Under the pieces are notes generated by a model. That model worked only from the letters and a program-made list of their open reading frames with translations, made no database searches and was not told the origin of the DNA. From the IMG/VR virus record IMGVR_UViG_3300020421_000003: DNA of 64,000 bases, one strand, 5' to 3'. Position numbers and translations under genes: made by a program. This document shows, piece by piece, positions 37,400 to 46,254 of the stretch; position 1 is the first letter of the stretch; every line of letters begins with the position of its first letter. The stretch is from a virus.

Positions 37400-37495
37400 G
37401 CAGGGAAACACTGGTATAGTATGCCTGTTGCACCCTCAGCAGCAGGTATGAAAGACTGTTATTTAATGACGCTGTTTAGTCTTGGTGAGGCGTCA
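37400..37495 (-). ncRNA. PhotoRC-II-like structured psbA leader
   Basis: GACGC..AAGACT..GCGTC hairpin whose loop pairs with downstream AGTCTT; CCTG..CAGG stem; position upstream of phage psbA. Confidence 0.65.
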
Positions 37496-37523
37496 AGTGT
37501 GTCGTTGTGTAACGACCGTCCAT

Positions 37524-42601: not shown

Positions 42602-42675
42602 CGATCCAGGATGGATTCGAACCATCGACCGACTGCTTAGAAGGCAGTTGCTCTATTCCACTGAGCTACTGGACC
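42602..42675 (-). tRNA. tRNA-Arg(UCU), no encoded CCA
   Basis: GGTCCAG acceptor, AGCTCAGTGG D-arm, ACTGC-CT-TCT-AA-GCAGT anticodon arm, GGTTCGAATCC T-arm. Confidence 0.95.
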
Positions 42676-44370: not shown

Positions 44371-44395
44371 AAAAAAGAGGGGAAGGTCCCCTCTT
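44371..44395 (-). terminator. Terminator after DUF4278-type gene
   Basis: AAGAGGGGA..TCCCCTCTT followed by T-run. Confidence 0.8.
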
Positions 44396-44404
44396 ACTTA
44401 TGCT

Positions 44405-44572
44405 CTACTTGGCGTAGGTTTTTCCACGGTAGCAGAAAGTCCCATGGGACTCTTTGGTTTCCACACAACGTGTGTCATACTCCACTCCACGGTATGTGGT
44501 GTGATGAATTTGTGCGTCGTGAAGAGCTGCAGCCTTCTGGATCCTCTTACGGATGTAGTTGAGTGTGTTCAT
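44405..44572 (-). CDS. DUF4278-type ('downstream peptide') protein, 55 aa
   Basis: Not in ORF track. MNTLNYIRKRIQKAAALHDAQIHHTTYRGVEYDTRCVETKESHGTFCYRGKTYAK; two YRGxxY motifs; GAGG RBS. Confidence 0.75.
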   Translation of the reverse strand: MNTLNYIRKRIQKAAALHDAQIHHTTYRGVEYDTRCVETKESHGTFCYRGKTYAK

Positions 44573-44607
44573 GAGTTAGTCCTCTGAAGTTAGGGTGGTT
44601 TAATCCC

Positions 44608-44829
44608 CGTTCCTTCAGTCGTTTGCGTCCCAATAGCACTCAGGGACAGATTCCTTTACGGTCTCTATCAATTCTACCTTGAAAGCAGGTGAGAGATCCT
44701 CATTTGCTTTCATTTTAAGCATGATACTATCAGCTTGTTGGCAGGTGAGTGTCGAATACAAAAGTAATTCAATCATGGGATCAACGCTCCGTTGCGCGAC
44801 TTACTTGCGTCCTCCTAGGAGGATGAACG
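44608..44829 (-). ncRNA. Tandem glutamine (glnA-type) riboswitch
   Basis: Aptamer 1: CGTTCA-TCCTCCTAGGAGGA-CGCAAGTA-AGTCG-CGCAACGGAGCG. Aptamer 2: CGTTGA-TCCCA...TGGGA-CGCAAA-CGACT-GAAGGAACG. Confidence 0.75.
44615..44776 (-). CDS. 53-aa protein nested within the riboswitch
   Basis: Not in ORF track. MIELLLYSTLTCQQADSIMLKMKANEDLSPAFKVELIETVKESVPECYWDAND; GGAG 11 nt upstream of the ATG. Confidence 0.65.
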   Translation of the reverse strand: MIELLLYSTLTCQQADSIMLKMKANEDLSPAFKVELIETVKESVPECYWDAND

Positions 44830-44869
44830 TGTTGTCATGATAGCATGACATTTCTATTTATGCAACCCC

Positions 44870-45067
44870 CTACTTATCTCGTTTCTTTTTACGACGGTAG
44901 TAGGGAGTGTTGCTAATGGGCTTGGTATTCTTTAAGTCCTTCTTGAGTTTCTTCAAGAAGGATAAGTGGTCCCTGATACCATGTATCGGGGTTTTCGGAA
45001 TACCAGTCGATTGTGTCTCGTTTGAATAAAGGGACCTCGCTTGTCTCTTCCAATTTCTTCTCGGCAT
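44870..45067 (-). CDS. Basic hypothetical protein (coding frame ambiguous)
   Basis: 65-aa ORF; the two other minus-strand frames are also open here. Confidence 0.4.
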   Translation of the reverse strand: MPRRNWKRQARSLYSNETQSTGIPKTPIHGIRDHLSFLKKLKKDLKNTKPISNTPYYRRKKKRDK

Positions 45068-45117
45068 TGTGATGTGTACCTGGATACACCTTGGGTATCC
45101 GTATCCATGTTGTAATT

Positions 45118-46254
45118 TTATAGCTTAAACCCGCTAAAAGTTTCCGCACTAACATCCTGCTTGATTCCTCCGACGACATAGGATTCAATCTCAGTTTCCT
45201 GAGGGGCATTTTGTTGACCCTTGCTATTTAGCCAGTGCTCTGTCCAGGGCAGTGGATTATTCTTAGCAGGGATATCAAAGGCAGGTGCTAGACCGATTGC
45301 TTTCATACGACGATTAGCAATCCATTCAACGTATTGAGAAAGCAGACGCTCGTTAAGACCGATCATGCTACCATTCTCAAACAAATACTTTGCCCACTCT
45401 TTCTCTTGAGCAACTGCGTCAAGGAACATCTGACGCACTGTCTCTTCCTCATCCTTAATGATCTGCTGCATCTCAGGATCATCACCCTTCTTCCACTTGT
45501 AGAGGATCTTCTGGGTCAATGCGAGATGTTGAGATTCATCCCTGGCAATAAGGGAGATAATTTTTGCTGAACCTTCCATGAGTTTAAGTTCACCAAAAGC
45601 AAAGCTGCAAGCAAAAGAAACATAAAACCGTATACCTTCCAGGATGTTAACATTAGCAATCGCCAAATAAAGTTTACGCTTGACATCTCTGATCGTCCAC
45701 GTCGCAGTGGGAGAGTCTTTCCAACCTTCCTTCCACATGTTACTGAGTGACCACTCAGTTGCTACCTCAATGAAGTCATTGTATGCTTTGCATACTGCAG
45801 TAGCACGGTCAAGGATCTTGTCGTTATCTAATACCGCATCGAAGACTTCTGATGGGTCTGCGTATACGTTCTTGATGATATGGGTATAGGAGCGAGAGTG
45901 AATCTGCTCCATGAATTCCCAGACTCCCATGCATCCTTCCAACTCTGGAAGACTACAGTAAGGTGAGAATGCCATGCCAGGACCACGCCCTTGCACAGAG
46001 TCCAGAAGGATCTGATACTTGAGGTTGCTGGTGTAGATATGTTTTTGTTGCTCATTCAGTGTCTTGTAATCGGCACGGTCCTTCTGTAGAGATACCTCTT
46101 CAGGTCTCCAGAAGTAACCGAGTTGTGTCTGTGTTAGTTTGTCGAAGTCAGGATACTTATATTCATCGTATCGTTGCATCCCCAAGGGTGCCCCGAAAAA
46201 CATTGGTTGTTTTTTGGTGTCTACTTTCTTGTCGTTGAAAACAGTCAGTCCCAT
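45118..46254 (-). CDS. nrdB: Ribonucleotide reductase class Ia beta
   Basis: FWRPEE, EQIHSRSY, LEGIRFYVSF, RDESQH. Confidence 0.97.
   Translation of the reverse strand: MGLTVFNDKKVDTKKQPMFFGAPLGMQRYDEYKYPDFDKLTQTQLGYFWRPEEVSLQKDRADYKTLNEQQKHIYTSNLKYQILLDSVQGRGPGMAFSPYCSLPELEGCMGVWEFMEQIHSRSYTHIIKNVYADPSEVFDAVLDNDKILDRATAVCKAYNDFIEVATEWSLSNMWKEGWKDSPTATWTIRDVKRKLYLAIANVNILEGIRFYVSFACSFAFGELKLMEGSAKIISLIARDESQHLALTQKILYKWKKGDDPEMQQIIKDEEETVRQMFLDAVAQEKEWAKYLFENGSMIGLNERLLSQYVEWIANRRMKAIGLAPAFDIPAKNNPLPWTEHWLNSKGQQNAPQETEIESYVVGGIKQDVSAETFSGFKL

Follow-up and report, generated by a model that had tools for sequence, protein, structure and literature searches.

Can a metabolite-sensing RNA be built around a gene that is itself translated, and how would the helices of such an RNA be paired? 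This question is raised by a locus on the minus strand of the IMG/VR virus record IMGVR_UViG_3300020421_000003, a 64,000-nucleotide stretch of T4-like cyanophage DNA (the whole stretch is called the window below), where two glutamine-riboswitch-like cores occupy positions 44607-44829 and nrdB lies just upstream. The preliminary description of this DNA had read the locus as two side-by-side glutamine aptamers, the second of which holds a 53-codon gene in a loop, followed by a DUF4278-type peptide gene; all of its motifs were found on the minus strand where it had placed them. Our analysis leads to another pairing. The element is probably a glutamine riboswitch in a cyanophage form, with two nested, putative ligand-binding cores that have one helix in common and are arranged around a translated gene. 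Sequence comparison demonstrates the anatomy of the element, its pairings (through covariation) and protein-level selection on the inner gene.

From 5' to 3', the locus runs through a promoter-like region, an inverted repeat, S1-A, the P2 hairpin, CGCAAGUA, AGUCG, C, G-CAACG-G, AG, CGUUG-A and UCCCA with the inner open reading frame (ORF). The 3' half continues with UGGGA-CGCAAA-CGACU, GAAG-GAACG-G, a small hairpin, CUUCAG-AGGA, the ATG of a 55-amino-acid (aa) peptide and a terminator. Four strands, named S1 to S4 in this order (Table 1), can pair in two arrangements, a nested one (S1:S4 with S2:S3) and a tandem one (S1:S2 with S3:S4). Among 104 distinct double-core elements, the nested pairing is Watson-Crick throughout and the tandem pairing is mismatched in 32. 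The S1:S4/S2:S3 states are C:G/G:C in 73 elements (including one that was re-read with its true S1, CGUUC), C:G/C:G in 22, U:A/C:G in 8 and U:A/G:C in 1. Position 5 of S1 covaries with position 1 of S4, being C:G in 95 elements and U:A in 9, across the gene and a separation of about 210 nucleotides (nt), and the S2:S3 pair is G:C or C:G, never a mixed state. When the 32 distinct 5' halves are considered, S2:S3 is paired in 100% of them (GC in 22, CG in 10), and S1:S2 is broken in 10. The clade of the window carries S2 CAACG and S3 CGUUG with S1 CGUUC and S4 GAACG unchanged; these changes in S2 and S3 are compensatory only under S2:S3 pairing. Furthermore, a targeted scan recovered a clade with S4 AAACG, in whose double-core loci S1 is CGUUU and S2/S3 are C..G or G..C. 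Predicted folds point the same way: RNAalifold on the 5' halves gives S2:S3 and not S1:S2, and the minimum-free-energy (MFE) fold of the window RNA with its gene replaced by GAAA is the nested fold at -24.6 kcal/mol, including the S2:S3 hairpin. The outer P2 shows compensatory changes at four of its six pairs, with 93.6% of cells paired.

The covariation thus fits the nested pairing rather than the side-by-side tandem of the preliminary description (CGUUC/GAGCG for the first aptamer, CGUUG with the far GAACG for the second). In that alternative, S1/S2 would close core 1, S3/S4 would close core 2 over the gene, and AGUCG/CGACU would act only as an interlock. It can draw on local Infernal alignments, of 25-30 bits for core 1 and 34.5 bits for the second core of the ORF-free Bellamy element (RF01739 cut-off 35), on the single core-2-like unit of the S-H68 type, which has to pair an S3-type strand with S4, and on the possibility that S1:S2 folds first during transcription. 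The 32 mismatched elements, however, include the window and carry C.C plus G.G, U.C plus G.A, or C.A mismatches, and a local core 1 would have neither P3 nor GAAG, so that we regard side-by-side aptamers as decidedly unlikely. GAGCG, tried as the 3' strand of the first P1, was rejected; it falls within a variable linker (AG, AGC, AAC, UUC, AAU among relatives), and it is G-CAACG-G that forms the conserved 3' partner strand behind core 1.

With the nested pairing, the outer core would be a type-I-like three-way junction, its P1 formed by S1/S4, its P2 by the hairpin and its P3 by AGUCG/CGACU. The inner core, situated in the 'loop' of P3, would be a circular permutation of the outer junction, with CAACG-GAG-CGUUG as P1', UCCCA/UGGGA as P2' and the same P3. 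P2' would close over the complete 53-codon gene, placing the A of the start codon, the last five codons and the stop codon inside the sensor. The link between AGUCG and CGACU that had been noticed earlier has support and would correspond to this P3 common to the two junctions, an assignment that comparison of the relatives favours but that is not proven by double changes. Infernal itself takes AGU/ACU as P3 of RF01739 in ACG-2014f. The 3'-strand variants CGAUU (9 loci) and CGGCU (24 loci) both keep G.U/U.G pairs with AGUCG, the latter retaining the wobble pairing despite an Asp to Gly change, and no variant at position 2 was found among the relatives.

Another alternative is a strand-exchange switch, in which the nested fold is the ligand-free state and glutamine shifts the RNA to tandem pairing, or the reverse, both sets of helices being of importance. 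The four strands are interchangeable in sequence in most of the phages, the RNA of the solved glutamine-II structure exchanges strands between molecules and can form from two pieces, and, of all pairs in the ligand helix of that structure, the varying one, 5:36, is conserved least (PMC6698751). A binding state should nevertheless keep its own pairs, and only the nested complementarity is kept at the variable position; we therefore consider strand exchange unlikely. On the flanking-gene tree, the S2/S3 swaps amount to 8 changes, a count that is uninformative given recombination and the closeness of the two sites.

The kinship of the nested element to glutamine riboswitches was examined with Rfam models. 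The window locus gave no match at the gathering cut-offs. Under relaxed thresholds, RF01704 (Glutamine-II) aligned to 44783-44832 with 25.3 bits (E 4e-4; cut-off 33) and RF01739 (Glutamine-I) with 17.7 bits for a local core-1 alignment (cut-off 35), and the local RF01704 alignments of the relatives score 26-32 bits, also below the cut-off. Two natural ORF-free relatives, ACG-2014f and Bellamy, stand in for the window RNA minus its loop, as they carry the same element with the short hairpins UCCAG-GAAA-CUGGA and UCCC-UUCG-GGGA replacing the gene. The ACG-2014f element attains 41.1 bits on RF01739, above the cut-off, in an alignment that reaches from the first CGUUC to the last GAACG and leaves the inner core as a 41-nt insert. 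The window copy is thus missed by RF01739 because of its gene-sized insert. The glutamine-site nucleotides CGUU-A, CGC-A and G-AACG-G are present in both cores, and C1 G2 U3 U4, A6, C17 G18 C19, G35 and A37 A38 C39 G40 G41 (numbering and nucleotide roles after the glutamine-II structure, PMC6698751) are invariant in both cores of 67 unique relatives. CGCAAGUA is the counterpart of the C17-G18-C19-A20 ligand-site strand in that structure, and G44607 that of the base to which the J23 cytosine pairs in the solved structures. Collectively, these comparisons support the proposed origin, namely that the element is a relative or derivative of a glutamine riboswitch.

That cyanophages carry glutamine riboswitches in a DUF4278 context is already known (PMC9964418, PMC6212724, PMC2864571), and the element combines traits of both families. 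Glutamine-I (RF01739; the leader of Synechocystis gifB (IF17), PMC6212724) is like the outer core in its CGUUC-A-P2-CG.AAGUA-P3-GAAG-GAACG order, in its three-way junction closed by the P1 helix CGUUC/GAACG (here S1 with S4) and in the DUF4278 gene downstream, and it is this family whose cut-off the ORF-free phage relative exceeds. Unlike glutamine-I, the phage RNA houses a second, circularly permuted core in its P3 'loop', and one of its stems spans a 162-nt gene. The glutamine-I junction strand CGGAAGUA, whose G pairs with the C after GAACG, is not matched either; the window has CGCAAGUA and a G after GAACG, so that the long-range C/G pair of the junction is retained but inverted, as in glutamine-II. 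Glutamine-II (RF01704; marine Synechococcus and Prochlorococcus; PMC2864571, PMC6698751) has in common with the phage element the CGUUCA, CGCA and G-GAACG-G strands, a helix flanking GAACGG (CUGAAG/CUUCAG) beside the start of a short YRG peptide gene, and the marine picocyanobacterial setting. The phage element differs from it in having two cores and a gene in a stem, and its flanking helix seems to compete with core closure.

A conserved structured RNA that does not switch upon a ligand, serving for instance in processing or stability, in protein binding or, as a set of repeats, in cassette shuffling, would also account for a window element that stays under the Rfam cut-offs. It would agree with the mosaic nature of the unit, which occurs with or without nested genes, as single-core recombinants and with differing downstream peptides, and with the 8 state changes of S2/S3 on the flanking-gene tree, which indicate recombination. 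Against it stand the invariance of all nucleotides that contact glutamine or build its pocket, in both cores, the canonical DUF4278-peptide context and the score of the ORF-free relative on RF01739, which make an element without a ligand improbable.

Two sensors for one ligand in a single leader recall tandem riboswitches. The glycine riboswitch is a tandem riboswitch with interacting aptamers, and, as in that type, two same-ligand sensors could give cooperative or sharper responses. Unlike tandem riboswitches, the phage cores are nested, have one helix in common and are interrupted by coding sequence. Tandem glnA RNAs have been noted before (PMC2864571).

The enclosed ORF is, to judge from its pattern of substitution, a real protein gene under selection as a protein, as the preliminary description had held. 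Its tblastn matches extend over 313 phage records from many Kyanoviridae genera down to about 35% identity, and it matches phrog_504 with an E-value of 1e-28. In 87 distinct coding sequences with products of 52-56 aa, dN/dS has a median of about 0.26, third codon positions vary most (entropies by position 0.77/0.40/1.01), and all indels are multiples of three. Two cysteines are invariant. The AlphaFold (AF2) model consists of two helices (pLDDT 76), and fold searches with the protein matched only uncharacterised cyanophage proteins. That the ORF is just a long, variable, untranslated loop is extremely unlikely in the face of this coding signature, even with a Shine-Dalgarno sequence that is not conserved and with no recognised fold or function. 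The SD-like GGAG proposed for the gene, in the S2-S3 linker, did not stand, as it is not conserved among the relatives. One point of the preliminary description is corrected by GenBank relatives, in which both small ORFs are annotated as hypothetical proteins (gp197/gp198, T4-GC 430/937; the usual annotation of the inner gene is gp197, T4-GC 430); the two belong to PHROG 504 (inner ORF) and 545 (peptide ORF).

The end of this gene serves a second purpose, since its final codons UGG GAC GCA AAC GAC UGA are at the same time the RNA UGGGA-CGCAAA-CGACU, in agreement with the earlier proposal that they form the 3' half of an aptamer. The third-position entropy of the last five codons (W-D-A-N-D) is 0-0.09, versus about 1-1.7 elsewhere in the gene, and in S-CAM1, where the gene ends earlier, the same UGGGACGCAAACGACUGAAGGAACGG follows the stop as non-coding RNA. 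The near absence of synonymous variation and the non-coding copy in S-CAM1 show that this stretch is conserved as RNA. The UCCCA/UGGGA stem around the gene is likewise real, judged by covariation: the variants UCCUA and UCUCA preserve G.U pairs with UGGGA, two IMG/VR contigs carry the two compensatory changes UCCUU/AAGGA with a protein ending in KDAND, and the full-length thermodynamic fold retains this long-range stem (z-score -3.4). A second type of nested gene, the 66-codon gp196, replaces the hairpin of the first core in Syn10, Syn19, S-CAM1, S-TIM66 and others. In these phages, the stop codon changes together with the base that precedes the ATG (UCUUA/UAAGA, UCUCA/UGAGA, UCCU/AGGA). Loci of this type are L083, L086, L087, L088, L093, L095, L099, L108, L111, L112, L117, L121, L125, L126 and L132, and gp196 carries an HH...W-HMSCERF motif. 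An hhalign comparison of gp196 with gp197 gave no significant sign of paralogy (probability 5%).

Coding sequence in functional RNA has precedents of another kind. Phage group I introns (T4 td, nrdB) loop ORFs out of peripheral stems, and RNAIII/hld is a dual-function RNA. Here, too, coding sequence lies in the stem loop of a functional RNA, and translation and folding can interfere. Unlike these ribozymes and regulatory RNAs, the phage element is metabolite-sensor-like and has both the start and the stop codon inside helices.

The gene downstream of the sensor bears out the expected DUF4278-type peptide. Its 55-aa product, with two YRG..Y motifs, reaches 22.0 bits (E 2e-4) on Pfam DUF4278 (PF14105), short of the cut-off of 25.3, and the peptides of relatives at the same position score 18-26 bits, two of them above that cut-off; the protein, which has tblastn matches in 372 phage records, is best described from these scores as DUF4278-like. 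The post-sensor gene varies, being a classic DUF4278 peptide of 42-47 aa (MTTITYRG..., MAKV.YRG...) in L034, L049, L072, L104 and L106; the sensor thus travels with different YRG peptides. Between sensor and peptide gene, CU[G/A]AAG can pair with CUU[C/U]AG, A occurring with U only (13/13) and G with C or U. CUGAAG overlaps J31, the terminal part of P3 and the stop codon of the inner gene, and CUUCAG overlaps the ribosome-binding site of the peptide gene. This helix is present in the full-length MFE fold and is incompatible with full closure of the outer core. In cellular glutamine riboswitches of both types, glutamine turns the translation of DUF4278/IF17-like peptides on (PMC6212724), and by analogy this suggests that the phage element is a putative ON switch. 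A small hairpin at 44593-44608 (minus strand), GGGG-AUUAAACCA-CCC, takes up the last G of S4 and the G meant for the junction cytosine, and relatives read by eye have GGAU...AUCC or GGAC...(A)UCC at this site; this hairpin may compete with core closure as well.

For the nested element we infer ligand binding, the direction of control and the roles of both small proteins as follows. Glutamine would stabilise the closed double core, and closure would withdraw CGACU-GAAG-GAACG-G from the alternative CUGAAG/CUUCAG pairing. This withdrawal would leave the DUF4278 (IF17-like) peptide gene with a free ribosome-binding site, as in an ON switch. The closed fold would at the same time sequester the start of the inner gene, since its start codon and the preceding 15 nt would be tied up in P2' and the S2:S3 hairpin. 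Conversely, a ribosome that initiates, reads or terminates in the inner gene (its UGA lies inside CGACUGAAG) would open P2', P3 and S4, so that sensing and translation of the inner gene would be mutually exclusive on each RNA. The toggle between two small proteins put forward in the preliminary description is a reasonable inference from this layout; translational coupling of the two genes, or sensing that depends on ribosome traffic, could equally apply. More tentatively, and perhaps with a chance of one in a few, a single mRNA of this kind may act as a dual reader, of the glutamine level through two sites and of ribosome traffic on the enclosed gene, and so set the ratio of the two proteins.

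Several points weigh against the nested sensor or its proposed action. No contiguous alignment of the window attains an Rfam cut-off. In AGUCG/CGACU, the changes are wobble-compatible but one-sided, no double changes occur, and S-SSM6a has a C.A mismatch. Only 2-3 nt link the G following S2 to S3, which is tight if this G also pairs with the J23' cytosine. Single-core relatives of the S-H68 type use pairing of the S3:S4 kind, and some of them tolerate a G.A mismatch, so that position 5:36 is not essential. Finally, on a heavily translated mRNA the two ends of the inner gene may seldom be free of ribosomes at the same time, and termination at the UGA within CUGAAG could open the next ribosome-binding site regardless of glutamine.

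The layout is conserved across many marine T4-like cyanophage genera, in more than 300 GenBank records, with variants that comprise double cores lacking an ORF (Bellamy, ACG-2014f), cores that enclose one gene or two, and single cores. In the single-core S-H68 (L134, 402-620), the nested gene has 65 codons and a signal-peptide-like N-terminus. The single-core loci L134, L157, L163, L195, L200 and L202 have one CGUU(C/G)A-UCCC stem that closes over the 65-codon gene, and some S-H68-like loci have CGUUG together with AAACG, giving a G.A mismatch, and look like recombinants that have shed the first core. The unit has a mosaic makeup, with S2/S3 states dispersed over the flanking-gene tree. A scan of genome contigs found the phage-specific 3' half of the sensor in 5 copies only (L136-L140), in contigs that resemble phage DNA, and no sign of this exact element in a cellular version. 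These are filed under Synechococcus, Nonlabens, Verrucomicrobiales and Euryarchaeota assemblies or metagenome-assembled genomes, one being a 194-kb 'Synechococcus' contig, and they look like cyanophage DNA binned with cells.

Upstream of the sensor, the 'late-like box' of the preliminary description stands in part: CATAAATA is present, but it overlaps a sigma-70-like promoter. At the equivalent site, TTGAY-N17-21-TANNNT occurs in 64/89 relatives, its -10 hexamer being placed in an inverted-repeat loop, and 23/89 have NATAAATA at the same place. A hairpin lies 5' of the sensor in nearly all 89 relatives with differing arm sequences. In most relatives (L001-L140), its loop is TATAAT or TATACT, the -10 of a TTGAC-N17 promoter, and the T4-late-like NATAAATA stands about 33 nt upstream instead, or additionally, in the 23 relatives just mentioned. 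The inverted repeat may function at the DNA level, as an operator surrounding the -10, and not as a hairpin in the RNA. No NtcA box (GTA-N8-TAC) was seen by eye upstream of the window sensor, and a literature search for Syn9 transcript data found nothing usable. The terminator predicted after the YRG peptide gene is present (Table 1). In the neighborhood, a PhotoRC-II RNA at 37411-37507 (minus strand) scores 49.3 bits, above its cut-off, a tRNA lies at 42602-42675 (minus strand; 69.3 bits), and neither Pfam nor PHROG gave a match for two overlapping ORFs (65 and 98 aa; 44870-45209, minus strand) that lie between the sensor and nrdB.

Table 1 Features of the nested element and its surroundings in the window.
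Feature	Position	Strand	Remark
Promoter-like region	44837..44865	-	TTGCAT 44860-44865, 17-nt spacer, TATCAT 44837-44842
T4-late-like CATAAATA	44855-44862	-	overlaps the sigma-70-like TTGCAT-17-TATCAT
Inverted repeat UGUCAUG-CUAU-CAUGACA	44833..44850	-	directly 5' of the sensor; -10-like hexamer in loop
S1, CGUUC	44825..44829	-	5' strand of outer P1; partner S4
Outer-core P2 hairpin UCCUCC-UA-GGAGGA	44810..44823	-	directly after CGUUC-A
Outer-core J23, CGCAAGUA	44802..44809	-	invariant among relatives
P3 5' strand AGUCG	44797..44801	-	partner 44617-44621; helix common to both cores
G-CAACG-G	44789..44795	-	S2 (44790-44794) of inner P1' with flanking G residues
S3, CGUUG	44782..44786	-	partner S2 across 3-nt loop G-AG (44787-44789)
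P2' 5' strand UCCCA	44776..44780	-	last A is the A of the inner ATG; partner 44628-44632 across 143 nt
Inner 53-codon gene	44615..44776	-	Syn9 gp197 family, T4-GC 430, phrog_504
P2' 3' strand UGGGA	44628..44632	-	Trp-Asp codons of the inner gene
Inner-core J23' CGCAAA	44622..44627	-	kept as CGCA(A/C/G)A in relatives
P3 3' strand CGACU	44617..44621	-	final U opens the inner stop UGA (44615-44617)
GAAG (J31), S4 GAACG (44608-44612), G44607	44607..44616	-	matches RF01739 consensus GAAGGAACG
Expression platform	44580..44618	-	CUGAAG 44613-44618, CUUCAG 44584-44589, AGAGGA ribosome-binding site 44580-44585
55-aa peptide gene, two YRG motifs	44405..44572	-	Syn9 gp198 family, phrog_545, DUF4278-like
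Intrinsic terminator	44375..44395	-	nine-pair stem, then T run; closes the unit

Our literature search brought up no account of an aptamer stem that encloses a gene, or of nested cores with a common helix; such insertions may be mentioned by Ames & Breaker 2011 and Ren et al. 2015. Riboswitch aptamers are regarded as compact, contiguous leader elements, and the helices of this putative phage aptamer span a translated gene, which would place ligand sensing and translation in direct physical competition. As covariance-model scans miss split elements of this kind, riboswitch censuses undercount them. The natural ORF-free versions of about 90 nt in Bellamy and ACG-2014f, together with the strand-swap variants, are ready-made experimental constructs. 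If the dual reading is true, this would be the first riboswitch with an aptamer built around a translated gene, and the phage would set the ratio of two proteins according to both nitrogen status and translational capacity in the cell that it infects. The IF17-like peptide, a candidate inhibitor of host glutamine synthetase, would tie phage infection to the nitrogen status of the host and provides a testable link to glutamine synthetase control.

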